From Patescibacteria group bacterium (GTDB lineage Bacteria > Patescibacteriota > Microgenomatia > UBA10105 > UBA927): DNA of 64,000 nt. Positions 286-19,392 of the stretch are shown here, in pieces (the stretch's first letter is position 1; each line of letters starts with the position of its first letter). The stretch spans positions 19,701 to 83,700 of the forward strand of contig DPYI01000025.1 of the NCBI GenBank assembly GCA_003545435.1, written 5' to 3'. The notes beneath the pieces were generated by a model, which made no database searches, was not told the DNA's origin, and saw only the letters and a list, made by a program, of their open reading frames with translations. The position numbers were made by a program, and so were the translations under genes.

Positions 286-1461
286 TTAAGAAAATATTGA
301 AATCAATGTTTTTATTTCCTTATCCGTCAATTCGGGATTATTTCCGAAATACAATCCCTGTTCATGTGCGATATTTGCATTTGTAGGTATGTCGCGTTTG
401 GCACCATTTACGTATTTTAGATAAAACGGTTGTTTGGTCATGTCCCCTCCGACGATAGGTCGTATTTCTACGAGTCCGTTACATTTTTTTACCAGGTCAT
501 CCCGTATCTTTTGAGTTCTACAGACAATAGGTACAGCAAAATTGGATACAATGTCCATGTGATCATAGCGGATGGGATAATACTGTGCGGTATTTCCGTA
601 AATAATCCTCGCTATGGCGAAAAAATTAGATTGACGTTTTTTTACAATCTGGTCAAGATATGACAGCTGAATATTTCCGACAAATCCCTGAATTTCCGTT
701 GTACGTAAATTGTATCCCAGATCATAAAAGGTATATCGTGAATAAAATGTCTCATTGACATGATGTTTGATGCGGATTTTCAGCTGTCTGTCTTGGGTAA
801 GATTCCTGTCCCATCCGTGAGCACGGACAAACTGCAGCATGGTCTCAAGTTCCGTGTTATCAGTACACACCGCTCCTCCTTCTATCGTCGACATGTGATG
901 ACCTACATAAAATGAAAATGTACTGGCCAGACCAAAATTTCCCAGTTTTTTCCCTTTATAAACCGAGCCGAGTGATTCGCAGTTATCTTCTATCAAAAGA
1001 ATGTCTTTCTTTTTACAGATTCTGTATATTTCATCAATGTCATCACAAAAACCAAGTAAATTCGTCAGAAATAACATTTTTATGGGATGCTTCTGGATCG
1101 TTTTCAGAAGAATTCGGGAAGAAACATTCAGCGTGTCAAGCGCACAATCAATGGGCACAGGTTGAAGCCCCAATTCAATAAGCGGCATGACGTTTGTAGA
1201 CCACGTGAGAGCTGAAAAACCGACTGCATCTCCCTTTTTAATTTTTCCCAGGTTAAGAAGTGCCTGAATGATAGCTAAATTTGCACTGCTGCCGCTGTTG
1301 ACAAATACGCAATGTTTCCGTCCCTGATATTTTGCAAAATTATGTTCGAATTTTCCGCATTCTTTTCCGATACTTAGCATGTGTGCATTTTTTATAAAAA
1401 CACACAGTTTCTGTTTTGTATTCTTTTCGTTGTAGAAGGTTGATTTGATAAGCTTGATCAT
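286..1461 (-). CDS. DegT/DnrJ/EryC1-family PMP/PLP-dependent sugar-modifying enzyme, ColD-like 3-dehydratase candidate
   Basis: 391 aa. VNSGSSANLAII is the DegT fold. The active-site segment FSFYVGHHMSTIEGG has His-His where aminotransferases carry the Schiff-base Lys, as in GDP-4-keto-6-deoxymannose 3-dehydratase (ColD, ~388 aa). Also RAHGWDRNL and IRPIVGGD motifs. Confidence 0.75.
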   Translation of the reverse strand: MIKLIKSTFYNEKNTKQKLCVFIKNAHMLSIGKECGKFEHNFAKYQGRKHCVFVNSGSSANLAIIQALLNLGKIKKGDAVGFSALTWSTNVMPLIELGLQPVPIDCALDTLNVSSRILLKTIQKHPIKMLFLTNLLGFCDDIDEIYRICKKKDILLIEDNCESLGSVYKGKKLGNFGLASTFSFYVGHHMSTIEGGAVCTDNTELETMLQFVRAHGWDRNLTQDRQLKIRIKHHVNETFYSRYTFYDLGYNLRTTEIQGFVGNIQLSYLDQIVKKRQSNFFAIARIIYGNTAQYYPIRYDHMDIVSNFAVPIVCRTQKIRDDLVKKCNGLVEIRPIVGGDMTKQPFYLKYVNGAKRDIPTNANIAHEQGLYFGNNPELTDKEIKTLISIFS

Positions 1462-1494: not shown

Positions 1495-2655
1495 TTACAA
1501 AAGACCTCTGAATGCATCGGTAAAAATATGATCCCATCTATATTTCTTTGCAAATGCTAACGCATTTTTCCGCATTATTTCCATTTTTTTCTTATTTTTT
1601 AACAGTGAAACGACTGCACGCGCTAGACACCTTTTATCATACGGAACAATCAGAGAGCATCCCGTTTGAAACGATTCCTCGGCAATCGAACCCACATCAG
1701 TCATAATAACCGGCAATCCGCATGCAAAGTACCTCTTTATTTTCCCCGGTTCTGTATGGGTAACAACAGTGTTTGTTGGCGTATATGAAGCGATACCAAG
1801 AGCGGCCTTTGCTACGCGTTTGTCAGTCGTGTCGGGATCTTCTATGTAGCCAATAAATGTAACATGCTTCTCTAAATTTTTCTCTTTTATCATATGTTCA
1901 AGAGACTTCCGATATGGCCCTTTGCCAATGAGTGAAAAATGAACAGAAGGGACAGCGGGAATGATATACTGCAGGGCTTCGATCACCAGCTGAATTCCCT
2001 GACCTTCGACAATTGACCCCAGATACATAACTTCATTTAAAGAAAGGCGTTTTGGTTTTTCTCTATCATATCTTACCCTGACACCATTCGGCGTCACCTT
2101 CTGATTTGGAAATATTCTCTTCCATCGGCTGGTCCGGGCAACTATCATCTGAGGAGCATAATTCCAAGTAGCATCACAAAACACGGCACACCAGTAATCA
2201 AGCCGATGATAGAGAGCGTTCATGAGTGCATGTGAGAAACGCCTTGGGATATAGTCAATCACATAATAAATACACTGGTTAATTTTTCCCGCCATTCGAA
2301 GGAATAATCCGTTAAATGCATTGAGATTTCCCAGTCCGATATAGTAATCGATTTTCCCCGGTACAGAGAGGGTCCAATAGAGAGTAACGATACTGTCTAT
2401 CCCGTACGCAATTGCTTCCGGAAGAAACGACGTTGTTGGTGCCGTACTTTTTTTTATCATTCTGCCGGATTCATACCATTCCCTATAGGATGATCGAACA
2501 CTATTATCCTCCATGGATCGGTTCCGATGTCCGATAAAGACAAGGGTTTTAATGCGACGAGAAAGTAAAAAATCCCTTAGTTCATGCGGCGGACCGAACA
2601 TCGCATCATGACAGACAATAACAGTGGTTTTTCCTCTAAAATCAGGTTTTTTCAT
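1495..2655 (-). CDS. Glycosyltransferase, GT4-like (GT-B fold)
   Basis: 386 aa soluble protein; C-terminal GYIEDPDT...GLPVIMTDVGSIAEE resembles the GT4 EX7E region; 4-nt overlap with the downstream gene. Confidence 0.55.
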   Translation of the reverse strand: MKKPDFRGKTTVIVCHDAMFGPPHELRDFLLSRRIKTLVFIGHRNRSMEDNSVRSSYREWYESGRMIKKSTAPTTSFLPEAIAYGIDSIVTLYWTLSVPGKIDYYIGLGNLNAFNGLFLRMAGKINQCIYYVIDYIPRRFSHALMNALYHRLDYWCAVFCDATWNYAPQMIVARTSRWKRIFPNQKVTPNGVRVRYDREKPKRLSLNEVMYLGSIVEGQGIQLVIEALQYIIPAVPSVHFSLIGKGPYRKSLEHMIKEKNLEKHVTFIGYIEDPDTTDKRVAKAALGIASYTPTNTVVTHTEPGKIKRYFACGLPVIMTDVGSIAEESFQTGCSLIVPYDKRCLARAVVSLLKNKKKMEIMRKNALAFAKKYRWDHIFTDAFRGLL

Positions 2656-3881
2656 GAAGCGTGCATATCAATAAATTTTTGAAAGACTTTTTTCATATAA
2701 ACGATATGTTTTGGAGTTATTCCAGGATAGACGCCGATCCAAAAGCCGTTGTTCATAATCAAATCAGAATTATGTAATGTACCGGCAACACGGTAATCTT
2801 TTCTTTTTAGATACGCCGGATGTTTCAGGAGATTACCGGCAAAAAGATTCCGCGAACCTATTTTGTGCTCCTCCAGATATTTCACCAATTCAAGCCTCGT
2901 AAACGGCGCGTCATCTTTGACGACCAACATAAAACCAAACCAGCAAGGATCAGCTTCTTTTTCCCACCCGGGAAGTATAAAATACTTCTCGTGTTCCTTG
3001 AAAAAAATATAGAAATCTTGAAAATTTTTTTTCCGTTTTTTGATAAATTTCGGAAGCTTCTCAAGTTGAGCTACGCCAATCGCTGCCTGAAAATCCGTAA
3101 GCTTCACATTGTACCCGATCTGTGAATAAATATATTTATGGTCAAACCCTTTCGGAAGGTTGCCTAATTGCCAGTCAAATCTTTTGCCGCACGTATTGTC
3201 GTATCCTGTGTCGCACCAGCAATCCCGCCCCCAGTCACGGAATTGCCTAACGGAACGGTGAATAAGAGGATTATTGGTAACTACCGCTCCTCCCTCGCCC
3301 ATGGTGATCTGATGCGCCGGATAAAAGGAAAATGTTGCTACTGACCCGAACGCACTTACCGGTTTCCCGTTATATTGTGAACCTAACGCGTCACAGCAGT
3401 CTTCGATAAACCAGAGGTCATATTTCTTTACAAGCTCCATAATGCCCGCCAGCGGCAAGGGATTCCCTAATGTGTGTGCCAGCATAATTGCCTTTGTCCG
3501 TTTTGAGACAGCTTTTTGAATCATCTCGACAGTTGAATTTTTTGTAAGGATGTCCACATCGATAAATACCGGAATACACTGGTTTTGTACTATAGGATTG
3601 ACAGTCGTTGGAAACGCGCATGCTGCGGTAATGACTTCATCCCCCGGCTTCAAAGCCCTTTTCCCAAATACGGCCGATGTTAGAGCGGACAAAGCTAACA
3701 AATTTGCAGATGATCCGGAATTCACTAACGAAACATATTTGATTCCGATATAGGAAGAAAATTCCTTTTCAAACTTTTTTGCAAACCGGCCTTCTGTCCA
3801 CCATCCGTCACGTGCTGCTTGTATTGCGTTTGTTACTTCCTTCTGATCAAACACTTTACCGGTTGCTGGAATGTATTTCAT
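2652..3881 (-). CDS. rfbH: CDP-4-keto-6-deoxy-D-glucose 3-dehydrase (E1, RfbH/DdhC/AscC-like), PMP and [2Fe-2S] dependent
   Basis: 409 aa DegT-fold protein (VNSGSSANLLALSAL); His replaces the PLP Lys (FSFYPAHQITMGEGG); the cysteine pattern EDCC-x57-C-W-C-DTGYDNT-C matches the E1 [2Fe-2S] motif C-X57-C-X1-C-X7-C exactly. Confidence 0.85.
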   Translation of the reverse strand: MKYIPATGKVFDQKEVTNAIQAARDGWWTEGRFAKKFEKEFSSYIGIKYVSLVNSGSSANLLALSALTSAVFGKRALKPGDEVITAACAFPTTVNPIVQNQCIPVFIDVDILTKNSTVEMIQKAVSKRTKAIMLAHTLGNPLPLAGIMELVKKYDLWFIEDCCDALGSQYNGKPVSAFGSVATFSFYPAHQITMGEGGAVVTNNPLIHRSVRQFRDWGRDCWCDTGYDNTCGKRFDWQLGNLPKGFDHKYIYSQIGYNVKLTDFQAAIGVAQLEKLPKFIKKRKKNFQDFYIFFKEHEKYFILPGWEKEADPCWFGFMLVVKDDAPFTRLELVKYLEEHKIGSRNLFAGNLLKHPAYLKRKDYRVAGTLHNSDLIMNNGFWIGVYPGITPKHIVYMKKVFQKFIDMHAS

Positions 3882-3897
3882 GAGACACCTCTGTTTT

Positions 3898-4122
3898 TTA
3901 TTTCTTTGGTTTTGTGAAATAGGCTTCGATTATCAAAAAAACCATTCCTGTGCAAAGGACCATATATGCAAAGGATCCTATCTTTTCAGTATTTCCAAAA
4001 GGATAGAGAATTGTACACAGCATGGCAGATATCAGGGTAATAAAACCTACAGAAATGCAGGCATCAGTCATTATCCGTACCATGCTCGTCAGATGAATCT
4101 GATTATACCTTACTTTTTTCAT
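3898..4122 (-). CDS. Small hydrophobic membrane protein (hypothetical, 74 aa)
   Basis: Fills the only gap between two minus-strand genes; two predicted TM helices; same orientation as the operon. No recognisable motif. Confidence 0.3.
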   Translation of the reverse strand: MKKVRYNQIHLTSMVRIMTDACISVGFITLISAMLCTILYPFGNTEKIGSFAYMVLCTGMVFLIIEAYFTKPKK

Positions 4123-6331
4123 ATTTTCGACTTTTTACATATATCCATAAAACCGTACCTCCGGCAACGGCAGTCAGAAAAATCCCCGCATAGTAAGAGA
4201 GCTGTGGCTGAAAATACAAAAGAAATGACATGCGCAGTTTTCCGTTGGGCAGTTCTTCAACAAACTCTTTCGAATAGGTCTTTTTCAGATACTCCGGATC
4301 CAGATCCCAGCTGTTGGCCCATCCGTACAGAATATTGTGATTGTGGTCAGGAATCTGTATTCCTTTCCGAAAAATTATACTCTTCCCGTAGGATTTTTGA
4401 GGGATAGGGTACAATTTCCACCATCTGGAATAATTTTCCAGAAGCACTAAAGAGACTGTATCAGAAAAACCCGATATCCGGATGCGTATCTGGACCGGAT
4501 TTTCCCTTTCATACTCAAAAGATAGTGAGGGGTCCTCATCTGCCAGTGATACAAGATCGGATCTGCATGTGTCTTTGACACCATACATGTATATGCCGCT
4601 TTTCTCCTGACCCAATATCTCTTTTGACTGAATGTCGAAAGACGCATCCAGGATTGAGATAATGCTTGATTGAGGAATTTCAATTTTCGTCTCATCAGCA
4701 TAATCTGTCCGTACGACAATATGGGAAATTCCCAATTCCCCAGCTTTTGTACAAAAAGATTGTCCTTCTCGTATGAGCCTCATCAAGGTATTGGTTTGTT
4801 TTTTATACGGAAGGTCCACGGAGTAGCCAGTGGGGTCGGGGCTTATGACGGGAACTTTCCATAATTCATAAATGAAATCAATGCCGGAATACCCGTTCAT
4901 TGACTGATTGAATTTCGGATACACACCGTATGTTCCGGGCAAAAGGAGTATGCGCGTCGCTTTTTCCATTTTCAGCCTATTTCCTGCATCAACGTAATAG
5001 TCTGGTATATGAAATGACGTCAGTCCGCCGGCAAAAATAAAACTATACACCAGCCAGCCGATGCATCCTCCGAACACTATGCCTGCTGTCACTCGTAATA
5101 CAGTTCGGAACCTAGCCATTCTCTCTTCAAAAAAAGCAAGCCCCATCATTGAAAGAGAGATATAAAAGAAGAAAAACTCCCAATAGAATTTGCTGACCGG
5201 ACGTCTGAAAATCTGAAATCCGGGTATGTGTTCATACAAAAACTGAAACATATTTCCCCACGGTTCCCTGACCCCTTTTGAAATAAACACTCCTAAAAGA
5301 AGCAGTCCAAAAAAAATGCGGATACCCGGATTTCTCTGTCTTTGAAAAAGTGCATATCCTAAAAAAACTGTCATGAGGAGAAACAAAAGAGGAAGAGGAA
5401 AGCGGAAATAGCCAAAATAGGAAGGCGTATCATACAGTTGACCTTCAGCGCGCCCTAAAAAAATATTTCCTATTGTCGAAAATCCCGTTGCTGCTACTAC
5501 TCCTGACATAAGCGGATTGGTTTCATACTGCGCATGTGAAAAAAATTGTGTCACGAGAAACGGAATAAGCCACCACGAACATGCTAAAATCATGAGTATG
5601 AATACCAAAATATATCGTTTGACCGTCCGAACAGACGGTATACGGGAAAGAAGAATCGAAAAAAGAGCATATGCACTAAAAATTATTGCCAGTATGTATG
5701 GTACGGAGATGCTGTACGCTGCTCCTGACACAGAACTGAAGAACAGGAGAAAAAGAAGCAAAACTTTTTTGTATGATATGTTCTGTTCTTCCAATATATG
5801 AACATAGAACAACAAAATCCAGGGGAAGAGCGCATACAGAACAAGACTCAGGAAATGACCGGGTGCAATAAGACCTATCGGGTATGGTGAAAATCCATAA
5901 AGCTCCGCTCCGATGAAAGACCAAAAGAATGTTCTATGCTTTTTTAAATTCAACGAATGAACCAAATATTCCTGAAGAAACTGAAACATTGATACCTGCG
6001 ACAGGAAAAGAAGAAGGCTGATAAAAAAAAGAACGCTGAAATGAGGAGACACATGAAGCTGGGATAAAACCCACATAATCACATGGTAGGGAAAAAGCGT
6101 TGATAATTGAGGCGTGCTTTCATACCCTGCCGTATGGAGCGGATCATAGACAAACAGGTGGTTTCCAATCTCATATGCAAGGTCAACCGGAGAAGAAAAA
6201 TCACAGCTCCCTGCGAGGGGGTATATCGCATTGGAGCTTTTCCAGAAAAAAGGAGCCAGTGACAGGCAGGCAAAAAAAACGTATGGAAGAATGTTCTTTC
6301 TGTGTGATAGAAGTTTTGTCAAAAGCTTCAT
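4103..6331 (-). CDS. Large polytopic membrane protein (742 aa), putative GT-C-type glycosyltransferase/polymer-modifying enzyme
   Basis: More than 12 hydrophobic segments in the N-terminal 430 aa, a ~250 aa hydrophilic domain, then a C-terminal TM helix; start overlaps the upstream stop (ATGA). Confidence 0.55.
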   Translation of the reverse strand: MKLLTKLLSHRKNILPYVFFACLSLAPFFWKSSNAIYPLAGSCDFSSPVDLAYEIGNHLFVYDPLHTAGYESTPQLSTLFPYHVIMWVLSQLHVSPHFSVLFFISLLLFLSQVSMFQFLQEYLVHSLNLKKHRTFFWSFIGAELYGFSPYPIGLIAPGHFLSLVLYALFPWILLFYVHILEEQNISYKKVLLLFLLFFSSVSGAAYSISVPYILAIIFSAYALFSILLSRIPSVRTVKRYILVFILMILACSWWLIPFLVTQFFSHAQYETNPLMSGVVAATGFSTIGNIFLGRAEGQLYDTPSYFGYFRFPLPLLFLLMTVFLGYALFQRQRNPGIRIFFGLLLLGVFISKGVREPWGNMFQFLYEHIPGFQIFRRPVSKFYWEFFFFYISLSMMGLAFFEERMARFRTVLRVTAGIVFGGCIGWLVYSFIFAGGLTSFHIPDYYVDAGNRLKMEKATRILLLPGTYGVYPKFNQSMNGYSGIDFIYELWKVPVISPDPTGYSVDLPYKKQTNTLMRLIREGQSFCTKAGELGISHIVVRTDYADETKIEIPQSSIISILDASFDIQSKEILGQEKSGIYMYGVKDTCRSDLVSLADEDPSLSFEYERENPVQIRIRISGFSDTVSLVLLENYSRWWKLYPIPQKSYGKSIIFRKGIQIPDHNHNILYGWANSWDLDPEYLKKTYSKEFVEELPNGKLRMSFLLYFQPQLSYYAGIFLTAVAGGTVLWIYVKSRKYEKSKV

Positions 6332-7260
6332 GTGGGTTTTCGTTGAAATAGCAGCTTTATGACTGCTGAAGCTATCAAATGAACAGATAAACCGTTTTGA
6401 TCATGCATATATTCCTGCAAACCGATTTTTTCCGTAAACCTATCAGGGACACCCATGCGCTGAAAGGGCGTTCCCAGCGATGACTCTGCAAGCACTTCGC
6501 TCACCGCACTGCCCAAACCTCCGATAATGCTATGATCCTCAAGGGTAATGACTGCATGTGTTTTTTTCGCACTCTCGAGAATAAGAGGAGCATCAATCGG
6601 CTTTATTGTATGCATGCTGATGACGCGCACCGAGCAGCTCTTTTTTGCAAGCAGCGCTGCCGCTTCCAATGCCCGAGAAACAAGCGTGGAGGTTGCAACA
6701 ATAGTTGCATCGGATCCATCCTGCAGAATGATCCCTTTCCCGATCCGAAAACGCGGTTCTTTGTTGTAAAGAATTTTTTCTCCGGCTTTGCCTAAACGAA
6801 AATACACTGGTGTGTTCGTTGTCAGCATTGCTCTCGTTGCGAGATGAACTTCCGTAGGATCTCCGGGAGCAATAATAGTCATATCAGGAAGTGTTCTTAA
6901 AATGCCGATATCTTCAAGACTATGGTGTGTGTGGCCGTATGGTCCGTAGGAAAATCCTGCTCCAACGCCGACTATCTTTACATTGAGATTCTGATAACAG
7001 ATGTCGTTCCTGATTTGTTCAAAATTGCGCATTGTCACAAAGGGAACAATGGAATATATAACCGGTTTATATCCTTCCATCGCTAAACCGGCAGCAACGC
7101 CGGTCATATTCTGTTCCGCAACCCCGGCATTGAGATACTGTTTCGGAAGTTCCCGCATAAAGTTCTCGAATGCGGAAAACCCCAGATCTCCTGTTAGGAG
7201 AATAATCCGATTGTCCTTTTTGGCTTCTTCCAAAAGCGTCGCGGCAAATGTATTTCTCAT
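6328..7260 (-). CDS. Transketolase, C-terminal (pyrimidine-binding) subunit of a split transketolase
   Basis: 310 aa; GVAEQNMTGVAAGLAMEGYKPVIYSIVPF and C-terminal transketolase domain motifs; adjacent to the N-terminal subunit. Confidence 0.85.
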   Translation of the reverse strand: MRNTFAATLLEEAKKDNRIILLTGDLGFSAFENFMRELPKQYLNAGVAEQNMTGVAAGLAMEGYKPVIYSIVPFVTMRNFEQIRNDICYQNLNVKIVGVGAGFSYGPYGHTHHSLEDIGILRTLPDMTIIAPGDPTEVHLATRAMLTTNTPVYFRLGKAGEKILYNKEPRFRIGKGIILQDGSDATIVATSTLVSRALEAAALLAKKSCSVRVISMHTIKPIDAPLILESAKKTHAVITLEDHSIIGGLGSAVSEVLAESSLGTPFQRMGVPDRFTEKIGLQEYMHDQNGLSVHLIASAVIKLLFQRKPT

Positions 7261-7268
7261 GGGAGTAT

Positions 7269-8090
7269 TTACGAACCTCTGTCTAATATTTCCATTACTT
7301 CTTTATATTCATCTTCCGTAGGAGGTTTATACTGTGATGAAATCTGATTGACGTGTTTTGCGACTCCTCCCCGCCCTTTTATTGTATGCGCGATGATAAC
7401 TGACGGATTCCCTTTGGTGAAAGGAACGGAAGTGAAAGCGTCAACGAGCTGTGTAAAGTTATGACCGTCAACCTCTCGGGCTTCCCAGCCGAATGCTTCC
7501 CATTTCTCAGCAAACGGCTCCAGGTCAAGGACGTTTTTCGTATATCCGAATCCCTGAAGCTTATTGTAATCAACGACAGCAATGAGGTTGTCGAGCTTGT
7601 GCTGTCTGGCAAACAGAACCGCTTCCCATGTGGATCCCTCGTCGCACTCACCGTCAGAAAGGATTGCGTACACTTTCCATTGTTTCCTGCGTTGTTTTCC
7701 GGCAAGAGCAACTCCTGCTGCCATTGCTAGCCCGTGACCAAGGGACCCCGCCGACGCTTCGATACCAAAACTCACATTCCTCGTGGAATGACCGGCGAGC
7801 AAGCCGCTGTCCATCTCATACCCATCTAACACCCGTCTGTCAAAAAACCCCCGCTGGGAAAGAACCGCGTACAATGCTTTCGCATCGTGTGCCTTGCTGA
7901 AAATCAAACGGTCTCGGTTGTCGTTGGAAGGATCTTTTGGAAATACGCGCATAACACGGAAATAGAGGGCAACCAGTATTTCGACACATGACAGCGCTCC
8001 TCCCGTGTGGGCGCTTTGAGCCCGGAAACTCATCATAAGAATTTGTTTTCGGATTTCTATAGCTATCTTTTTCAGTTGTCCTATGGACAT
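7269..8090 (-). CDS. Transketolase, N-terminal (TPP-binding) subunit of a split transketolase
   Basis: 273 aa; SAHTGGALSCVEILVALYF...GHSTRNVSFGIEASAGSLGHGLAMAAGVAL is the TPP-binding transketolase N-domain. Confidence 0.85.
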   Translation of the reverse strand: MSIGQLKKIAIEIRKQILMMSFRAQSAHTGGALSCVEILVALYFRVMRVFPKDPSNDNRDRLIFSKAHDAKALYAVLSQRGFFDRRVLDGYEMDSGLLAGHSTRNVSFGIEASAGSLGHGLAMAAGVALAGKQRRKQWKVYAILSDGECDEGSTWEAVLFARQHKLDNLIAVVDYNKLQGFGYTKNVLDLEPFAEKWEAFGWEAREVDGHNFTQLVDAFTSVPFTKGNPSVIIAHTIKGRGGVAKHVNQISSQYKPPTEDEYKEVMEILDRGS

Positions 8091-9028
8091 ATGTATCCTC
8101 TTTTTTCTGTCTTTTCCACTATATATGTTGGTCTGGACTTGGTCTCCTCTACAATCACCTGAATATATTTACCGATAATGGATAATGCCAGAAGATTCAC
8201 TCCGCCGAAAAAAACTATACTCACCAATATGGTTACTGCTCCCTTTATCGGATTTCCAAAGAGAAAAAAGAAAAGAATATATATGATAATAAATAGAAAA
8301 GATAAAAATACCAATATCAATCCAAACCATATTAACAGATCAAGAGGAAGATAGGAAAACCCGAATACACTCCGTTGGGCGTGCTGGAAATATGATATGA
8401 GCGAGTATGAACTTTTCCCGTGTATCCTTTTTTTCCGTTCATACGGTATATAGGCTGTCGAGAAACCAACCCAAGCGCGAATCCCCCGGGCAAAACGGTA
8501 TTTTTCGGGCAGATGCATCATGGCATTAACGACTCTCCTGGTATATAAGCCAAATCCGCTGCTATTAATCGGAATATTTACGTTTGAGATGATTCTCATA
8601 ATTTTATAAAAAGCTTTTCGTAAAAACACGATAAGCATCGGATCTTCGAGCTTCGTATAAATACCTATAATGCTATCGTATCCCTCTTCCCATTTCTTGA
8701 TAAATGTTGGCAGCAATTCTTCCGGCTCCTGAAGGTCGCAGGGGTACCAAATAACCGCATCGCCCTTAGTAAAATCAAAGCTGGCCTGAGAAGATGCTTC
8801 GGGGCCGAAATTTCTGGAAAGAAAAACACCTCTCACCGCACGATCTTTCTGTACCAGGCGATGAATTTCGATTCTTGTTTTATCAAGGCTGCCGTTATCG
8901 ACAAATATGTATTCGAAATCATACTTTTTTATTCCACGAATGATCTTTCGCAGCCTGCGGTATGCCTCACCAACATTTTCTTCCTCGTTATAACAAGAAA
9001 TGCCGATGGATATCAGTTGTTTTCTCAT
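8081..9028 (-). CDS. GT2 polyprenyl-phosphate sugar glycosyltransferase (GtrB/ArnC/Dpm1-like) with C-terminal TM helices
   Basis: 315 aa; ISIGISCYNEEENV...FVDNGSLDKT GT2 DXD-type N-domain, plus two C-terminal TM helices as in bactoprenol glucosyltransferase GtrB (~305 aa). Confidence 0.75.
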   Translation of the reverse strand: MRKQLISIGISCYNEEENVGEAYRRLRKIIRGIKKYDFEYIFVDNGSLDKTRIEIHRLVQKDRAVRGVFLSRNFGPEASSQASFDFTKGDAVIWYPCDLQEPEELLPTFIKKWEEGYDSIIGIYTKLEDPMLIVFLRKAFYKIMRIISNVNIPINSSGFGLYTRRVVNAMMHLPEKYRFARGIRAWVGFSTAYIPYERKKRIHGKSSYSLISYFQHAQRSVFGFSYLPLDLLIWFGLILVFLSFLFIIIYILFFFLFGNPIKGAVTILVSIVFFGGVNLLALSIIGKYIQVIVEETKSRPTYIVEKTEKRGYICP

Positions 9029-10095
9029 ATTTTTTTTGTTCGCATGGATAAACGTTTCATTTCCGACCAGCTATATCCAAATACCATGAGGAGAGACATA
9101 ATCGGATGGAGAAACCACGCGATATCAGGTTTTGATATAAATCCCTTCACGCTTATATATAAGGGTTGAATGATTGTTAGAGAAAATACTATAAATGCAG
9201 TTAAGTTGCGGCGGTCTTTGGGGGAATGGGAGTTATAGACTAAATATCTCCGTTTTCCCTTCAGGGTATCCGTAAAATACTTTTTTACCTCCACCCGCCT
9301 TATTACCTGATCCATAATATTCGGGCGGGAAACATGAATGATGCTGTTTTTTACGACGCCTACTGTATCATACCCCATACAAAGAAGCTCTCTATATCCG
9401 TCTGTATGGTAGAACGGCTTCCCTTTTCGGACCACTTTCCTAAAAACTTCAGCGCGTATCATACATCCATTATCTCCCATAACAGGCTGGTTATCTTCAG
9501 TGAACCGGACTATAGTATATTTTTGTGTATCTTTTATTATTTCCCCTTTATCATATTTCATCTGATCCATGCGGATTTTATCTGACTTTTTCAAATAGTA
9601 CAGTGTCGGATCGGGGGATCCGATTAATGCAAAGTATTTCGTAAGAATATCATCAGACGGATCGTATCCATTGTGCATGGAAAACGTCGAAAAAACATCT
9701 TTTTCCTTAAAAGGAGCCACCATGTCAGTCAGCCAACTTGACGAAGTCATTATGTTGTCCGATTGTAAAATCAAAACGATGTCTTCCTTGATATATGATA
9801 AAGCCCGGTAATAACGACCTAATCCTTCATTCTGATCATTTATAAAAGATAATATCCGGGGGTGATATTGACGTGCGACGGCAAGCACCTTTTTATGGCT
9901 TCCTCCGTCCAATATATAATGCCGGAATAGCCCCTTATACCGTTGTTTGCGTACAGCCTCAAGACATCTGGTAAACACTGCGATGTTTGGATTAAACGTA
10001 TTGGTGATAATTGCAATGGAAGGATTACTCATGGGTAGTGTGAATCTATAATTCATCTTTTTGTATGGTATTTTTCTGTTTCTTGTACCATGCAT
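9025..10095 (-). CDS. GT2-family glycosyltransferase with C-terminal membrane anchor
   Basis: 356 aa; N-terminal SIAIITNTFNPN... GT2-like; C-terminal hydrophobic helices. Start uncertain (alternative ATGs at 10056 and 10032), which affects the overlap with the SDR gene. Confidence 0.5.
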   Translation of the reverse strand: MHGTRNRKIPYKKMNYRFTLPMSNPSIAIITNTFNPNIAVFTRCLEAVRKQRYKGLFRHYILDGGSHKKVLAVARQYHPRILSFINDQNEGLGRYYRALSYIKEDIVLILQSDNIMTSSSWLTDMVAPFKEKDVFSTFSMHNGYDPSDDILTKYFALIGSPDPTLYYLKKSDKIRMDQMKYDKGEIIKDTQKYTIVRFTEDNQPVMGDNGCMIRAEVFRKVVRKGKPFYHTDGYRELLCMGYDTVGVVKNSIIHVSRPNIMDQVIRRVEVKKYFTDTLKGKRRYLVYNSHSPKDRRNLTAFIVFSLTIIQPLYISVKGFISKPDIAWFLHPIMSLLMVFGYSWSEMKRLSMRTKKI

Positions 10096-10912
10096 GCAAT
10101 CGAAGCAGTGATTGATAAAAAGGCGTAAAAGTTATCTGTGGCATTTCATTTTTCAATCTCGTGATATCGCACGTATATTCATTTGCTAACTCCTTTTTCT
10201 TAACATAAATCATATGCTTTTCTTTCCCCAATCTCGTGATTGTTTTGGCAATCGTCATGAGATTAATCTTCTTTCCGGTTCCGATATTGTATGCTCTGTA
10301 TGCAGGCTTATTTTTAATAAAATGATCAATTATGGGTGCCAAATCCTGAACATCCATATAGTCAAAATAGACATCCTGCTTCATCGTGATTGGTAACCCA
10401 TGGATATATCTGCATAATGCATTTGAAATAAATCGGTGTTGATAATTTTCCCCCTCTCCAAAAATTCCAAAAATCCGAAGGTCTATCATGTTATCGGTTT
10501 GATGAATGTAGTTTGAACATATGTATTTATACAACCCGTATTCATCGTTGGGAATTTGCTTCCCAAAATCTTTTTCCTTGATGTTGACTATCGGATGCCT
10601 CTTGTCGTACACAGCGCCCGATCCGATATGAATCAACCGTTGATAATATTTTCTGCACCGAGCAAGATTAAAAAAAATACAGATATTATCATAAAACATA
10701 CCTTTAACAAATAAATGAGGTCCGTTGCTTCCAACTACGGCGCAATGAATGACGATATCGACTTTATTTATTAAAAAATAGGATTGCACCTTCTTTTCAT
10801 CAAGCAAATCTAATTGTCTGTGATTCGGAGTTAGTAATGTATATTTTTGAGAAAGGGCAGTTTTCAGATGTGTTCCAATAAATCCGGTGGAACCCGTAAT
10901 GAGTATGTTCAT
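10046..10912 (-). CDS. NAD(P)-dependent SDR sugar reductase/epimerase (CDP-abequose/paratose synthase-like size)
   Basis: Start moved to internal MNILITGSTGFIGTHL (ATG 10912); 288 aa; YGLYKYI gives the YxxxK catalytic motif; divergent from the TPP-enzyme gene. Confidence 0.65.
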   Translation of the reverse strand: MNILITGSTGFIGTHLKTALSQKYTLLTPNHRQLDLLDEKKVQSYFLINKVDIVIHCAVVGSNGPHLFVKGMFYDNICIFFNLARCRKYYQRLIHIGSGAVYDKRHPIVNIKEKDFGKQIPNDEYGLYKYICSNYIHQTDNMIDLRIFGIFGEGENYQHRFISNALCRYIHGLPITMKQDVYFDYMDVQDLAPIIDHFIKNKPAYRAYNIGTGKKINLMTIAKTITRLGKEKHMIYVKKKELANEYTCDITRLKNEMPQITFTPFYQSLLRLHAWYKKQKNTIQKDEL

Positions 10913-11042
10913 AATCTTACAACCTGGCAAGTTTCTCCAGTCATCGTCCAGAAAAGCGTTTTTATTTTATCACAATCGATTTAGATTTTTTTCATATTCT
11001 ATCTCTAAGAGATATGCAACTGGCACATACTACCTTCTATTA

Positions 11043-11071
11043 TTGATTTATCCTTTGTGTTTAAGGATAAT
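11043..11071 (+). promoter_or_regulatory. Candidate sigma70-type promoter for the plus-strand TPP-enzyme gene, in the 178-nt divergent intergenic region 10913..11090
   Basis: TTGATT (11043..11048), a 17-nt spacer, then GATAAT (11066..11071); ATG at 11091. Confidence 0.3.
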
Positions 11072-11090
11072 ACCACTGTTACGTAATTTT

Positions 11091-12872
11091 ATGTATTCCC
11101 GCGTTGCTGACTACATTATTGATTACATATACCGGCATGGAACCGACACTATTTTTACCGTTGCCGGAGGCGGAGCAATGTTTCTGAACGATGCGGTAGC
11201 ACTGCATAAGAAAATCACATATATATGCAATCATCATGAACAGGCTTCCGCCATGGCAGCTGAAGCGTATGCAAAAACGAAGGGCCACATTGGCGCGGCT
11301 ATGATCACCTCAGGACCCGGAAGCACGAATGCCATTACCGGCCTTATGGAGGCCTACCAAAATTCAATTCCTGTTATTTTCATCTCCAGCCAAACAAAAA
11401 AATCTCAAATGATTGCGTATTCAGGGATTACTGGATTAAGACAGTTTGGGATTCAGGAAGTGGACATTATTCCGGTCGTCAAACATCTCACTAAGTACGC
11501 AGCTATTGTGGAAAAACCGGAAGACGTACAATACCATTTAGATAAAGCCTATTATGTAGCTCTTTCCGGTCGCCCTGGGCCGGTATGGCTGGATATTCCT
11601 TCTGACGTGGCTTCTTCCTCATTACCCCAACACCGTACCATGTTTACGATTCCGCAACAGATGCACAATGGTGTAACAGATGAACACATTAAAAAAATTA
11701 TTTCTTTGCTACGTAAATCAAAAAAACCTCTCATTATAGCCGGCGGCGGCATAAAACTGGCAAAAACAAGAAATGAATTCCGGGCGTTTATAAACAAATC
11801 AAAAATACCCGTCGTCTGTCCTGATATGGGTATTGATATTCTTGAATACGATAACCCATATTATGTCGGCCACGGAGGCACAAAAGGCGACCGCGCCGCC
11901 AATATCGTCATTCAACAGAGCGATCTTATCATATCTTTGGGGAGCCGCTTGGCAGTACCGTTTATCGGACACGAGTATGACACGTGGGCACCGAATGCCT
12001 ATAAAATTGTTGTGGACATAGACGAAAGCGAACATAAGAAAAAGACGATTACTATAGATTTATTTATACACAGCGATGTCAAACAGTTCCTAAAAAAATT
12101 AAACGCGTGTCTAAACAAATCTTCTATTAAAGACACATGGATACATTATTGTCAGAATATTAAGAAATCATATGCTTTAAAATATGCAACAGTCTCAACT
12201 GATAAAACACAAGAGATAAATATGTATGATGCAATTCACGAAATTTCCAACCAATCCAAACCGAATGATGTTTTTATTACCGATGCAGGAATTACAGCCT
12301 ATGTATCTACTCAGACAATAAAAATTAAAAAAGATCAAAGGCTGATTCTTCCGGGAGCCACTCTCACTATGGGATACAATCTGCCGGCAATAATTGGTGT
12401 TTGGGCAGCTGATCGCCATGCGCGGATAATCTGCATCACCGGAGATGGATCATTTCAGATGAATATCCACGAGTTGGCTGCTATTACGCACAATAAAATA
12501 CCTGTAAAGATATTTATTATGAACAATCACGGGTATCTGGCTATTCGGACGACCCAAAAAATTTTTTTTAATAAGCGTTTGATCGGTGAAGGACCAGAAA
12601 CCGGTGTCTCTTTCCCAAATACAGAAAAAATAGCCCAGGCGTATGGTTTGAAGTATTTCTGCATAGAATTCAAAAAGGACCTTCACAAAACTATTAAAAG
12701 GGTTTTAACCTGTAAAGGTGCAGTCATCTGTGATTGCATCCTGCCATATTGGCAGGACCACATTACCGTATCATCAAAAGAACTTGAAACCGGAAAAATT
12801 GTTTCTCTGCCGATAGATGATATGTATCCCTATCTATCCGATGAAGATAAATTGTCAATAAAATCTATTTAG
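11091..12872 (+). CDS. TPP-dependent acetolactate-synthase-family enzyme (YerE-like candidate C-C bond-forming enzyme)
   Basis: ORF start trimmed to MYSRVADYIIDYIYRHGTDTIF (ATG 11091); 593 aa; three-domain ALS architecture, with a GDGSFQMNIHELAAITHNKIPVKIFIMNNHGY TPP/Mg-binding motif. Confidence 0.8.
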   Translation: MYSRVADYIIDYIYRHGTDTIFTVAGGGAMFLNDAVALHKKITYICNHHEQASAMAAEAYAKTKGHIGAAMITSGPGSTNAITGLMEAYQNSIPVIFISSQTKKSQMIAYSGITGLRQFGIQEVDIIPVVKHLTKYAAIVEKPEDVQYHLDKAYYVALSGRPGPVWLDIPSDVASSSLPQHRTMFTIPQQMHNGVTDEHIKKIISLLRKSKKPLIIAGGGIKLAKTRNEFRAFINKSKIPVVCPDMGIDILEYDNPYYVGHGGTKGDRAANIVIQQSDLIISLGSRLAVPFIGHEYDTWAPNAYKIVVDIDESEHKKKTITIDLFIHSDVKQFLKKLNACLNKSSIKDTWIHYCQNIKKSYALKYATVSTDKTQEINMYDAIHEISNQSKPNDVFITDAGITAYVSTQTIKIKKDQRLILPGATLTMGYNLPAIIGVWAADRHARIICITGDGSFQMNIHELAAITHNKIPVKIFIMNNHGYLAIRTTQKIFFNKRLIGEGPETGVSFPNTEKIAQAYGLKYFCIEFKKDLHKTIKRVLTCKGAVICDCILPYWQDHITVSSKELETGKIVSLPIDDMYPYLSDEDKLSIKSI

Positions 12873-12887
12873 AATTCACGTACGTCA

Positions 12888-13847
12888 TTACCGGTACGAT
12901 TGAGTCTTTTTATACCACACATATGTTTGTTGCAAACCCCTTCTCAATGAATGCGTATTTTTCCATCCCAACGCCCTTATTTTGTTATCATTCAGGTGCT
13001 GATATGGAATTTCACTTTTTGCTGAATTGAGAATTGTGTAGTGTATGTGCTTCTTTAGAATTTTTTCAGTGTTTTTTATCAAATCTAGGACAGAAAAATT
13101 ATTGTCAGATGATATATTAAAAGCCTGACCTGCTGTTCTCTTCATATGCCGGATTAGAAATGCTGTAGCCAGAGCTATATCTTTAACATAAACATAATCC
13201 CGTATATATGTTCCATCGCTTCGAACCTCAAGTACGGAGTTTGTAATCAGCGCTTTACATATTCCGGGAATAATCCTATCAAAATGTATGTCTCCTTCTC
13301 CAAACACGTTGCCAAACCGCGTAACGATAACCGGTAATCCATATGTTTTTCCATACGTCTGGGCTATGAGATCCGTGCAGGATTTGGATACATCATATGG
13401 ATGATCACCTTTCAGGGGGGATTCTTCCGTATACGGTTTGGTTGTCTTTCCGTATGCTTTGTCAGAAGAAGCTACAAGAATACCTTGTATACCGGCTGTA
13501 CGCCTGCATGCCTCCAGCACATGCACAGTACCCATAATGTTTGTTTTAAAAACATCATAGGGATTATCATACGCTTCCTGGACTATCGGAAGAGCCGCCA
13601 GATGGATAACATACGTTGGACTAACTGACGCAAATACTGCTTCAACTTTTTCTCTTTTTGTTATATCTATAATTTGATAATTTGTTTTCTTGTCTAATGA
13701 TTTCAGAAAAAAATACGATTTGCAGGGGTTTTGAATATCTATGACGGTAACGTCATATTTTTTTCGTACTAGCAGTTCTACGAGATGAGCCCCGATGAAT
13801 CCTGCTCCGCCGGTAACCAGTACACGGAGGGGTTCTAATCGTTCCAT
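12888..13847 (-). CDS. CDP-glucose 4,6-dehydratase-like SDR (RfbG/DdhB-like)
   Basis: Start set at MERLEPLRVLVTGGAGFIGAHL (ATG 13847); TNIMGTVHVLEA and HPYDVSKSCTDL (YxxxK) resemble the CDP-glucose 4,6-dehydratase signatures TNVMGTVHLLE and DPYSNSKGCAEL; immediately downstream of rfbF. Confidence 0.65.
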   Translation of the reverse strand: MERLEPLRVLVTGGAGFIGAHLVELLVRKKYDVTVIDIQNPCKSYFFLKSLDKKTNYQIIDITKREKVEAVFASVSPTYVIHLAALPIVQEAYDNPYDVFKTNIMGTVHVLEACRRTAGIQGILVASSDKAYGKTTKPYTEESPLKGDHPYDVSKSCTDLIAQTYGKTYGLPVIVTRFGNVFGEGDIHFDRIIPGICKALITNSVLEVRSDGTYIRDYVYVKDIALATAFLIRHMKRTAGQAFNISSDNNFSVLDLIKNTEKILKKHIHYTILNSAKSEIPYQHLNDNKIRALGWKNTHSLRRGLQQTYVWYKKTQSYR

Positions 13848-14620
13848 ATTTTCCAGGGAGGAGACTGTTCTTTCCATAGAGAGTTTAACCGCTCCACGTC
13901 TGCATAGGTGTCCATAGAATGCCAAAATCCTCTATGGATATACAGAGACAATTCACGTTTTTTTATGAGACGTTTCAATGCCTGGTGTTCCATTTCCCCC
14001 TTTTTAAGGTAATCGAAAAAACTATATTGGAAAATCATGAATCCGCCATTCACCCAATCCCGAAGCACCGGTTTTTCTATAAATTCAGTAATGACATTCC
14101 ATCTATTGATATGAACTAATCCGTATTTGCTCCGGGGGTACACTCCCGTGATAGTACCTGTAGTTTTTTGTTTTTTATGAAATGAGACCAATTCCTTAAC
14201 ATCTATATCCCCCACACCGTCTCCGTAGGTAACCATAAAATCTTCATTGTTTGGAATATAATCCTTTATCCTTAGAATCCGTTCTCCGGGAAGAGTATCA
14301 AGTCCCGTGTCAACAAACGTAATTTTAAAATCATCAATGCGTTTCCCGTCGGTTGTATCTCTGTAAATTTTGGCATACCCTGTTTTTGTCGATAACGTAA
14401 AATCATGAATAAAATATTTCTGATTGAGGAAATAATCCTTTATATATTCACCCTTATATCCCAATGCAATGATAAAGTCATTACATCCGTAATGGGAATA
14501 GATTTTCATAATGTGCCAGAGGATCGGTTTGTTTCCAATAAAAACCATTGGTTTTGGCTTAAATTCTGTTTCCTCTTTCAGGCGATATCCTATTCCGCCG
14601 CACAGAATAACTGTTTTCAT
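13835..14620 (-). CDS. rfbF: Glucose-1-phosphate cytidylyltransferase
   Basis: 261 aa; MKTVILCGGIGYRLKEETEFKPKPMVFIGNKPILWHIMKIYSHYG...PPWKIWND aligns along its whole length with Salmonella RfbF (MKAVILAGGLGTRLSEET...KPKPMVEIGGKPILWHIMK...APWKTWE). Confidence 0.9.
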   Translation of the reverse strand: MKTVILCGGIGYRLKEETEFKPKPMVFIGNKPILWHIMKIYSHYGCNDFIIALGYKGEYIKDYFLNQKYFIHDFTLSTKTGYAKIYRDTTDGKRIDDFKITFVDTGLDTLPGERILRIKDYIPNNEDFMVTYGDGVGDIDVKELVSFHKKQKTTGTITGVYPRSKYGLVHINRWNVITEFIEKPVLRDWVNGGFMIFQYSFFDYLKKGEMEHQALKRLIKKRELSLYIHRGFWHSMDTYADVERLNSLWKEQSPPWKIWND

Positions 14621-14670
14621 AATAATAATTTATTTATAACCTGAATTACGAAATAAATAAAGCTATTTTT

Positions 14671-14770
14671 TGTCATTCCGGACTTGCCTCGCCCGGCAAA
14701 GCCTTGGCGAAGTCGGGATCCGGAATCCAGAGAACAATTGCCTAGATTCCTGCTTTCGGGAGGAATGACA
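14671..14770. repeat. Composite palindromic intergenic element, copy A (TGTCATTCCGGA...GGGAGGAATGACA)
   Basis: 100-nt nested inverted repeats in the 235-nt gap between a gene end and the rfbF start; termini and the internal GTCGGGATCC block are shared with copies B and C. Confidence 0.6.
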
Positions 14771-18376: not shown

Positions 18377-19392
18377 AATTTCCTATCACGCACGAATGAA
18401 ACATAATACGAAATACGTGGGTATCTCATTATCTTTCTGAACAGCAATTCATCCGACATGCTCCTTATGTGTGCCTGTATGTAGCGTCTCATTTGTAGCG
18501 TTTTTTTACAATTTCGTATATTCCACAGTATCGCTTTTATAATAGACCAGCTAAACTGCAACCTTCCCCGAAGAAATGAATATAAAGCAAAACCAATACA
18601 TAAAAACACATGAATCGGCACTATCATAAGAAGCGCTTTGATCCCAAGATTCTTAAGGTAGGAACTGATCCGATTTTTAAATGAGTGGTACTGAATAAAT
18701 GCGCTGTTCATGGAGCTACTGGTTGCTCCCATTTTATGAAACACAACGGACGCGTGCACATAGATAATGCTGTATCCTGACAGCCAGATGCGGTGGCATA
18801 GATCTGTCTCCTCAAAATAGGCAAAATATGATGGGTCAAAAACATTTCCATCAACTAAAACAGCATCCAAAACCTGTTTCCTAAATAGCATGCATGCTCC
18901 TTTGGCTGTATAAAGGCAGATTCTTCTGTCAAATTTTTTTATATCTTTTTGTCCGAATCCGTAATGATATAAAAATCCCGTTGGTGTAAGAAATGCTCCG
19001 ATGCTGTCCAGCGTATCCGGTTTGTCCATAAGCAAAATTTTGCTTTGTGCTCCGCCAACTGATGCATCTTCTGCCATCTCTTTCACAAGCTCCGACAAAA
19101 ATGCTTCCGTAACTTTTACGTCATTATTCAAAAATAAGATATATTCCCCTTTTGTCTTTTGGTATCCGATGTTATTGGCATTGGAGAATCCCACGTTTTC
19201 ACTATTTTGAATGATGGTAGTCTTTGGATAGTGCTTTTTGACCCACTCGCATGATATATCATCGGAATTGTTGTCAACGAAAATAATTTCAAACTGCTTA
19301 TAGTCCTGTGTATGCAAAGACGTAAAACAGCCATGAAGCCATTTCATGCCATTCCAGTTTACGATAACAATGGAGACCAATCCCTTTTTCAT
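18373..19392 (-). CDS. GT2-family glycosyltransferase (soluble)
   Basis: 339 aa; LVSIVIVNWNGMKWLHGCFTSLHTQ...IIFVDNNSDD is a classic GT2 N-terminal domain. Confidence 0.75.
   Translation of the reverse strand: MKKGLVSIVIVNWNGMKWLHGCFTSLHTQDYKQFEIIFVDNNSDDISCEWVKKHYPKTTIIQNSENVGFSNANNIGYQKTKGEYILFLNNDVKVTEAFLSELVKEMAEDASVGGAQSKILLMDKPDTLDSIGAFLTPTGFLYHYGFGQKDIKKFDRRICLYTAKGACMLFRKQVLDAVLVDGNVFDPSYFAYFEETDLCHRIWLSGYSIIYVHASVVFHKMGATSSSMNSAFIQYHSFKNRISSYLKNLGIKALLMIVPIHVFLCIGFALYSFLRGRLQFSWSIIKAILWNIRNCKKTLQMRRYIQAHIRSMSDELLFRKIMRYPRISYYVSFVRDRKL

Follow-up and report, generated by a model that had tools for sequence, protein, structure and literature searches.

Two thiamine diphosphate enzyme systems in a surface-glycan island of a Patescibacteria bacterium: a YerE-like, probable sugar-branching module and a split transketolase-like pair

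The stretch of DNA analysed here, called the window, is 64,000 nucleotides of contig DPYI01000025.1 from a groundwater Patescibacteria group bacterium that belongs to the candidate phyla radiation (CPR), and it carries predicted genes for the synthesis of CDP-4-keto-3,6-dideoxy-D-glucose together with genes for two different thiamine diphosphate (ThDP) dependent enzyme systems. One is an open reading frame (ORF) of the acetolactate synthase (ALS) family at 11091-12872 which, judged by its sequence, very probably functions like YerE. The other is a pair of adjacent genes, TK-N and TK-C, that encode the two halves of an enzyme resembling transketolase (TK). With moderate confidence we take the best reading overall to be that of two independent cassettes, each of which would put a branch on a CDP-4-keto-3,6-dideoxyhexose. 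The coordinates of all features are collected in Table 1.

The YerE-like gene, its putative reductase partner and the CDP-sugar trunk

The original prediction had described the ORF at 11091-12872 as a TPP enzyme of the ALS family, and this was confirmed by the three Pfam domains TPP_enzyme_N, TPP_enzyme_M and TPP_enzyme_C (107, 110 and 117 bits, respectively); the cofactor Glu (HEQ) and the ThDP motif ITGDGSFQMN are also present. An NCBI protein of equal length matches the product with 100% identity, and therefore the ATG at 11091, and not the GTG upstream at 10887, is taken as the true start. Its best match in the PDB is JanthE (8rph), a characterised YerE-like enzyme, with 319 bits over the full length and about 31% identity, whereas the matches to acetohydroxyacid synthase (AHAS) were 235 bits or less. 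In AHAS the arginine of the RFDDR motif is the binding residue for the carboxylate of the keto acid that serves as acceptor. This motif is RLAVP in the window protein and RLAIP in JanthE, and the QWQ motif of AHAS, with its Trp, is TTQ and HTQ, respectively. A phylogeny had been proposed as the check on this gene, and in a neighbour-joining tree with IlvB, IlvI, Gcl and PoxB of E. coli the window protein and its CPR relatives clustered with JanthE and apart from IlvB, IlvI and Gcl; ilvN, ilvC and ilvD were all absent from the 74 kb examined, that is the window and 10 kb beyond it. The sequence data already contradict the alternative that this ORF is IlvB, the acetolactate synthase of branched-chain amino acid biosynthesis, which we regard as virtually excluded: its highest-scoring NCBIfam models are indeed those of AHAS and near-identical cluster-mates are called 'acetolactate synthase' in some public records, but the scores are far under every AHAS equivalog cut-off (362 versus 738 bits and 359 versus 538 bits), the Arg and Trp of AHAS are lost, the ilv partners are missing from the 74 kb, the tree groups it with JanthE, and its relatives are embedded in CDP-sugar loci.

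In the known scheme YerE adds a pyruvate-derived acetyl group to CDP-4-keto-3,6-dideoxyglucose and YerF reduces the product. The gene divergently paired with the YerE-like gene, as had been predicted, is that of an extended short-chain dehydrogenase/reductase (SDR), and the two are separated by a 178-bp gap; the annotated start of the SDR gene is at 10912 and an ORF starting with TTG reaches 10930. This SDR has only distant solved relatives, GDP-fucose synthase and RmlD, with scores that do not exceed 41 bits. SDR orthologues with 37-64% identity adjoin the YerE-like gene in loci L007, L011 and L026 and another YerE-like paralogue in L008 and L009, and they are found directly upstream of TK-N in L017, L019 and L020, which are loci without YerE. 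The glucose-1-phosphate cytidylyltransferase (CytT), the 4,6-dehydratase, the 3-dehydrase E1 and the SDR are all encoded within 12 kb, together with the YerE-like gene, and the same is true of the CPR loci L007-L009, where homologues of the YerE-like protein with 62-71% identity are located with E1. When metagenome contigs were scanned for loci centred on E1, 80 were obtained (L099-L178), 52 of them at least 8 kb long, and a YerE-like gene was near E1 in 26 of these 52. All 26 have a motif of the GY.SIR.TQ type or a related QFQ variant; RFDDR was found in none of them and none is AHAS-like. The proposal of a YerE/YerF-type arrangement is thus supported by the affinity to JanthE, the loss of the AHAS motifs, the conserved SDR partner and the co-occurrence with E1.

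The YerE/YerF-like module is a member of the already known YerE-type systems. Like YerE, JanthE, ErwE and MygE the window enzyme has the three-domain ThDP fold of ALS, and as in Y. pseudotuberculosis, where YerE/YerF make yersiniose A, the window has the genes for CDP-4-keto-3,6-dideoxyglucose and an adjacent NAD(P)H reductase. It differs in that its host is a CPR bacterium and its locus lacks an E3 reductase, and in having the canonical GDG where JanthE has a CDG motif. The window also has no donor-forming genes, whereas the ErwI/ErwJ system and the CPR loci L008 and L009 do.

Among the E1-adjacent ALS-family proteins, those of L101, L114, L117, L129, L131, L139 and L145 have RLD.RQTG and G(M/I)I(K/R)QFQ and not GY.SIR.TQ, and this subset may be a second sugar-branching ThDP subfamily or true YerE orthologues. 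The BLAST match to YerE in L068 is a true AHAS (RFSDR, QWQ) and was excluded. L009 (Patescibacteria; 5312-11782 and 18246-20033) has three YerE-like paralogues, and with them ErwI/ErwJ-like genes for a 4-hydroxy-2-oxovalerate aldolase and an acetaldehyde dehydrogenase as well as an aldolase of the DHDPS family; the locus is reminiscent of the erwiniose cluster and points to branched sugars of longer chain in CPR. In L008 (Roizmanbacteria; 8823-14733) the YerE-like gene is flanked by genes for aspartate kinase, aspartate-semialdehyde dehydrogenase and homoserine dehydrogenase and by one for a class I/II aminotransferase. It is plausible that they form a dedicated route to 4-hydroxy-2-oxobutanoate as branch donor and are a source of longer hydroxy-keto-acid donors.

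The trunk pathway to the acceptor of branching would consist of CytT, the 4,6-dehydratase and E1, which together would yield CDP-4-keto-3,6-dideoxy-D-glucose. Orthologues of CytT (40-71% identity) are present in most of the loci with both TK-like genes and E1 and in most E1 loci. The 4,6-dehydratase scored 170-185 bits with the models for both CDP-glucose and dTDP-glucose 4,6-dehydratase, under the cut-off of each, and its true start is probably at about 13835 because the domain starts at residue 34. E1 scored 636 bits with the RfbH equivalog (cut-off 423) and 499 bits, aligned end to end, with E1 of Yersinia pseudotuberculosis (PDB 3bcx), it has kept the active-site His that replaces the aminotransferase Lys (motif FYPAHQ), and it has kept the [2Fe-2S] cysteines of the C-x57-C-x-C-x7-C type (EDCC...RDCWCDTGYDNTC). 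By these features it is a genuine 3-dehydrase that depends on an Fe-S cluster and pyridoxamine phosphate (PMP).

The E1/E3 systems AscC/AscD and DdhC/DdhD share this full E1 orthologue with its His and [2Fe-2S] motif, but the dedicated E3 is absent from the window locus, as it is from 51 of 52 related E1 loci. No protein with Fer2, FAD_binding_6 or NAD_binding_1 and no ORF with a plant-type Fe-S motif was found in the window and the 10 kb beyond it, and the same search did find its positive control in L165. This locus, with an AscD-like FNR-ferredoxin reductase beside ddh-type genes, was the only one with E3 among the 80 E1-centred metagenome loci (1/52 of those at least 8 kb long), and the textbook pairing of E1 with E3 looks like an exception among the environmental E1 loci sampled. 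The loci without E3 resemble the case of SpnQ, which is served by general cellular reductases.

The second DegT-family protein of the operon, at 286-1461, scored 197 bits with WbdK/ColD (2gms, 3gr9) against 151 bits with E1, and its motif is FYVGHH. From its sequence it is probably a second sugar 3-dehydratase, and it suggests a second route of 3-deoxygenation that does not depend on E1, perhaps to a colitose-type sugar, in the same operon.

The transketolase-like pair: residues, neighbours and distribution

In the PDB the best matches of TK-N and TK-C were the chains 6yak (202 bits) and 6yaj (227 bits) of the split transketolase of Carboxydothermus hydrogenoformans. The GT2 glycosyltransferase gene overlaps TK-N by 10 nt, TK-N and TK-C are separated by 8 nt, and TK-C overlaps the gene of the GT-C membrane protein by 4 nt, which supports translational coupling of the four genes and agrees with the earlier claim that a split transketolase is coupled into the minus-strand operon. 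Residue states were assigned by alignment to the numbering of E. coli TktA and with the WHG motif of the Carboxydothermus enzyme. The pair was found to keep Asp155, Asn185 and Glu411 of the ThDP machinery as well as His26, His66, His100 and His473, and in this, in its fold and in its subunit split it is like the canonical enzymes of C. hydrogenoformans and E. coli. It differs from them in its place in a glycan operon and in the change of four catalytic or substrate residues, with Gln in place of His261, Gly of His461, Tyr of Asp469 and Lys of Arg520; further changes are Gly154 to Ser, which turns GDG into SDG, and Gln474 to His. Arg358 and Ser385 are apparently kept in HMMER alignments to the human and Carboxydothermus enzymes, their mapping onto TktA being unreliable. 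In transketolase the aldose acceptor is bound through its alpha-hydroxyl by Asp469 (Asp477 in yeast) and through its phosphate by His461 and Arg520, and the loss of all three argues against the normal substrates of the pentose-phosphate pathway. By analogy, the loss of Asp469 would fit a 3-deoxy-4-keto acceptor, which has no alpha-hydroxyl. The summed score of the two halves, 445 bits, is under the cut-off of 488 of the best TK equivalog, and the Pfam E1_dh model gave 18.7 bits (cut-off 22). Read from its residues, the pair is a competent ThDP enzyme and not a pentose-phosphate transketolase. The label 'split transketolase' used in the original prediction stands as to fold, split and ThDP residues, but as the name of a function it says more than is known.

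The non-canonical state is not peculiar to the window. The four CPR cassettes that were looked at first all have the motif, as do 80/80 loci from GTDB genomes, the 120 nearest homologues of TK-N all have SDGEC.EG and G[SA]LGHG, and GEDG occurs in only about one of the best 150 representatives (50% clustering) of the TK-C homologues, and therefore we are dealing with a large non-canonical family. A public record of the same locus, found by exact match (contig LCFF01000001.1 of assembly GCA_000998865.1, Candidatus Gottesmanbacteria, 'Microgenomates group bacterium GW2011_GWC1'), names both genes 'hypothetical protein'. The 90%-identity cluster that contains TK-N of the window is represented by an 86-amino-acid fragment, and TK-N consequently misses itself in homologue searches. 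The G+C contents of the two TK-like genes, 45.7% and 48.5%, are above the window mean of 39.4% and above those of their neighbours too, which could reflect amino-acid composition or lateral acquisition.

The neighbourhood of the pair is conserved as well. Three other CPR genomes have the order GT2, TK-N, TK-C, DegT/E1, and orthologues of the second GT2-like gene of the window (GT2b) are immediately upstream of TK-N in L001, L005 and L012 (42-44% identity) and nearby in L013 and L014 (37-42%). The 80 loci from GTDB genomes fall into several clades. CDP-sugar clusters are the setting of the window's own clade (GPYG), of one from Saccharibacteria/Doudnabacteria and of several from outside CPR. 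The typical operon runs CytT, 4,6-dehydratase, E1, SDR or DegT (when present), TK-N, TK-C, and was found in Anaerolineales and Ktedonobacterales (Chloroflexi), Thermodesulfobacterium, Myxococcales, Acidobacteria, Phycisphaerae (Planctomycetes), Elusimicrobia and an archaeon. A sister clade with the motif YRCGYKG gave the comparison: E1 with at least 49% identity was within 10 kb of the pair in 17/56 loci of the non-catabolic clades versus 0/26 of the sister clade (p=9e-4), and any DegT-family gene in 33/56 versus 2/26 (p=8e-6). These DegT neighbours are of three kinds, Fe-S E1, His-type proteins without the cysteines, and Lys-type aminotransferases that often come with a GNAT protein, and the gene directly beside the pair is, in the clade of the window, most often that of E1 or of a His-type dehydratase homologue.

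The sister clade consists of non-canonical split TK-like proteins of Clostridia, Lentisphaerae and Victivallales (L028, L033, L038-L044, L046, L050, L051, L054-L057, L059, L061-L063, L066, L068, L071, L073, L083, L087 and L089). Their genes stand beside those of classical SDRs, ROK-family proteins and sugar-binding proteins, a catabolic setting, and by sequence and context they are probably an uncharacterised sugar-catabolic transketolase-like enzyme. In Thermodesulfobacterium (L067, 6475-7323) a sulfotransferase gene is immediately upstream of E1, TK-N and TK-C and hints that the modified sugar has a sulfated derivative. Three loci, L010, L011 and L013, are titled 'uncultured Gammaproteobacteria', yet their TK-like, E1 and CytT genes are 61-71% identical to those of the window, and this taxonomy may be wrong.

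In the literature searched, no publication was found that links transketolase-fold genes to O-antigen, CDP-sugar/E1 or dideoxyhexose clusters. The nearest precedents are of two kinds. For miharamycin and amipurimycin biosynthesis it has been proposed that split-gene transketolases, with 13 homologues in Streptomyces, attach a hydroxyacetyl branch to a keto sugar (ThDP review), and these are, like the window pair, two-gene ThDP enzymes of the transketolase fold in a sugar-modification cluster with a keto-sugar intermediate. They are uncharacterised, are all from Streptomyces antibiotic clusters and are likened to the window pair by description only, whereas the clade of the window is found in surface-glycan clusters of CPR and many other phyla, is linked to CDP-sugars and E1, and has its specific losses of transketolase residues. 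The other kind are the pairs of the alpha-keto acid dehydrogenase-2 type, AviB1/B2, AlmDI/DII and KbDH-alpha/beta, which add acetyl branches to deoxysugars. They likewise have a PP-domain and a Pyr-domain subunit and put a two-carbon branch on a keto sugar; they are known from actinomycete antibiotic pathways and belong to a different family, as the E1_dh score of the window pair under the cut-off indicates.

Proposed pathway and competing explanations

From the gene identities, active-site states and conserved synteny described above we infer the following substrates, products and order of steps. The YerE-like enzyme would decarboxylate an alpha-keto acid and add the acyl anion equivalent, probably acetyl, to the C4 ketone of the E1 product. 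Since the window encodes neither an aldolase nor an aminotransferase that could make a donor, pyruvate is the likeliest one. The divergent SDR would then reduce the new branch ketone to give a yersiniose-like 4-C-(1-hydroxyethyl)-3,6-dideoxyhexose. The TK-like pair, which we see as an alternative to YerE and not as its partner, would move a two-carbon unit to a keto-sugar nucleotide, either a hydroxyacetyl unit with a ketose or hydroxypyruvate as its source or an acetyl unit supplied by pyruvate. The finished sugar would be passed to a surface acceptor via a polyprenyl-phosphate carrier by the PgfS/ArnC-like GT2 and the GT-C protein.

That the pair belongs to nucleotide-sugar modification can be held with high confidence on the strength of its sequence and neighbours. 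That its reaction is the transfer of a two-carbon unit onto the product of E1 is a tentative assignment with somewhat less than an even chance of being right. An alternative branching enzyme fits best because the pair associates with enzymes that make or use keto sugars and because a reductase or an aminotransferase is so placed that it could process the new branch ketone. YerE-like genes are also depleted in the E1 loci that have the pair (2/19 versus 26/50, p=0.002), as would be expected if two enzymes were alternatives for the same step. The ThDP systems form separate cassettes, usually found apart, which need not build one sugar. The original prediction had joined them in a single yersiniose-like C-branched dideoxyhexose; its YerE/YerF and E1 part is supported, but both ThDP systems need not serve that one sugar. 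Having both, the window probably encodes the synthesis of two modified sugars or of a single, doubly elaborated one.

Several points weigh against this reading. The trunk pathway has no encoded E3 reductase for E1 over about 74 kb. JanthE was the only characterised YerE-like enzyme in the comparison. The two samples of the depletion test differ in taxonomic make-up, and the window, L011 and L026 have both ThDP systems, which would be redundant if they carried out the same step. The clade of the TK-like pair is known from genes alone, and the Streptomyces precedent is itself only proposed. Finally, many of the TK-like loci have a Lys-type aminotransferase and a GNAT protein instead of, or besides, E1, and the acceptor thus need not be the E1 product.

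This last point leads to the explanation that survives best among the others, which is that the pair serves glycan biosynthesis without branching the product of E1. It could act on another keto-sugar nucleotide, one that precedes E1 or one whose ketone is later aminated, or it could make an unusual ketose or heptose precursor or transfer an acyl unit. A Lys-type aminotransferase and a GNAT protein are encoded just upstream of TK-N in L001, L011 and L018, in L016 an aminotransferase is upstream and GNAT just downstream of TK-C, several clades have aminotransferases and no E1, and the sister clade with its ROK and SDR catabolic genes shows that the family handles varied sugars. Heptose genes (GmhA, a kinase and HAD) are near the pair in L001 and L003, but they are absent from the window and most loci, and neither a carrier protein nor a lipoyl partner was seen that could serve acyl transfer. 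The prominence of E1 and His-type dehydratase homologues next to the pair in the window's clade also speaks against it, and on balance we consider this explanation unlikely. The narrower idea that transketolase supplies sedoheptulose-7-phosphate for heptose was dropped as a general explanation on the same distribution of the heptose genes.

Another explanation would turn the missing E3 to account: the pair could replace E3, the ThDP-bound carbanion being oxidised and its electrons passed to the [2Fe-2S] cluster of E1. E1 of the window is a true Fe-S enzyme, an E3-like protein is encoded neither in the window, nor in the 10 kb beyond it, nor in any of the 17 loci that have both E1 and the pair, and CytT, 4,6-dehydratase, E1, the pair and the SDR match ddhABCD and the reductase gene for gene. 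We nevertheless regard it as very unlikely, since E1 loci normally have neither (an E3-like protein in 1/52 and the pair in 2-3/80 of the E1-centred metagenome loci), in L007-L009, which are CPR loci with E1, there is no TK within 10 kb, many TK-like pairs adjoin DegT proteins without Fe-S cysteines or Lys-type aminotransferases without E1, and the TK-like proteins have no obvious site for a redox cofactor.

The original prediction had itself raised the alternative that the split transketolase is the ordinary pentose-phosphate enzyme, located in a glycan operon by chance. The closest solved relative is indeed a bona fide split transketolase, but this alternative retains hardly any probability because the four residue changes are conserved, the two halves stay under the equivalog cut-off, and the clade relatives examined are all placed in glycan or CDP-sugar clusters, where CDP-sugar, E1 and DegT genes recur across phyla in the same micro-synteny. 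The presumed housekeeping TK genes of a complete Microgenomates genome, moreover, are in an operon with a class I aldolase and not in a glycan cluster.

Two branching cassettes thus remain the reading that we prefer. Its wider form, that the TK-like pair is a widespread and so far unrecognised class of nucleotide-sugar ThDP enzymes which puts a hydroxyacetyl or acetyl branch on CDP-4-keto-3,6-dideoxyhexoses and is an evolutionary alternative to YerE, is put forward as a possibility that falls a little short of even.

The surface-glycan island and what the two systems would mean

The whole 64-kb window is a surface-glycan island in which, according to the ORF map and the Pfam and NCBIfam scans, almost all genes are on the minus strand, and it extends at least 10 kb past the left edge of the window (L090) and so covers at least 74 kb of the contig. 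The ORFs named in the original prediction were all found in the ORF map, at the positions that it gave. Its statement that the gene at 11091-12872 is the sole plus-strand gene in the first 48 kb also holds: it is the only credible one before 48017, the other plus-strand ORFs of at least 100 amino acids being antisense within longer minus-strand genes (one was checked and has no Pfam match). Homologues of the module genes with 60-74% identity are found in many CPR genomes, and on this sequence conservation the module ORFs are real genes rather than chance ORFs.

Table 1. Features of the module and its neighbours in the window (positions are those of the window)
Feature	Position	Strand	Evidence or remarks
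Glucose-1-phosphate cytidylyltransferase (CytT; DdhA/RfbF-like), predicted to make CDP-glucose	13835..14620	-	NTP_transferase; TIGR02623 275 bits over the full profile, cut-off 300
NDP-hexose 4,6-dehydratase (DdhB-like)	12888..13925	-	Epimerase and GDP_Man_Dehyd domains
YerE-like ThDP-dependent lyase, ALS/decarboxylase superfamily	11091..12872	+	593 aa; TPP_enzyme_N/M/C
Divergent intergenic region between the SDR and YerE-like genes	10913..11090	.	178 bp; sequence and annotated gene ends
Extended SDR; candidate for a YerF-like reductase acting on the branch (or C4) ketone	10046..10912	-	Epimerase and RmlD_sub_bind
GT2-like glycosyltransferase (GT2b)	9025..10095	-	weak Glyco_tranf_2_3 match
GT2 polyprenyl-phosphate sugar synthase, PgfS/ArnC type	8081..9028	-	Glycos_transf_2; PgfS 226 bits, ArnC 116 bits, both under cut-off
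TK-N, TK-like ThDP enzyme, N-terminal (PP-domain) subunit	7269..8090	-	Transketolase_N 115 bits
TK-C, TK-like ThDP enzyme, C-terminal (Pyr and C domain) subunit	6328..7260	-	Transket_pyr 115 bits, Transketolase_C 111 bits
Large GT-C-type membrane glycosyltransferase	4103..6331	-	weak GT-C_AftD match, 26.6 bits
74-aa ORF between the GT-C gene and E1	3898..4122	-	annotated in NCBI and ENA records; no Pfam match
E1, CDP-6-deoxy-L-threo-D-glycero-4-hexulose 3-dehydrase (DdhC/AscC/RfbH), PMP and [2Fe-2S] dependent	2652..3881	-	RfbH equivalog
GT4-family glycosyltransferase (Pfam 'group 1'), same operon	1495..2655	-	Glycos_transf_1 and Glyco_trans_1_4
Second DegT-family protein, ColD-like	286..1461	-	197 bits to WbdK/ColD; His for Lys, no Fe-S cysteines

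More than 20 glycosyltransferases are encoded in the island, along with about seven PMT_2-type, four YfhO-type and two PTPS_related membrane proteins, GT-C types and a flippase, and several of its ORFs of 500-800 amino acids are without a Pfam match. Such an island is a large investment for a CPR bacterium with a reduced genome. Between positions 1 and 48000 the minus strand carries nearly all genes, and over the whole window there is a steady drop of the cumulative GC skew, which agrees with the strand disparity and one-directional replication known for Microgenomates (PMC7143001). An Rfam scan of the window gave no matches.

Branched 3,6-dideoxyhexoses are immunodominant, strain-defining sugars, and the YerE-type enzymes that would make them are wanted as biocatalysts for chiral tertiary alcohols. 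As about half of the environmental E1 loci sampled have a YerE-like gene, acyl-branched dideoxyhexoses may be much commoner than one would think from the few structures that are known. The TK-like pair is a candidate for a second route to branched sugars, one that uses the transketolase fold, and a transketolase that accepts ketones is an activity which the biocatalysis field says it lacks (ThDP review). A word of caution follows for genome annotation, in that calls of 'transketolase present' made with hidden Markov models in CPR genomes may count this TK-like paralogue as pentose-phosphate capacity. For the organism itself, the module indicates that CPR bacteria with reduced genomes invest in branched-sugar chemistry, and if the pair is indeed a branching class, a locus with both systems would make two C-branched sugars or one that is doubly elaborated.

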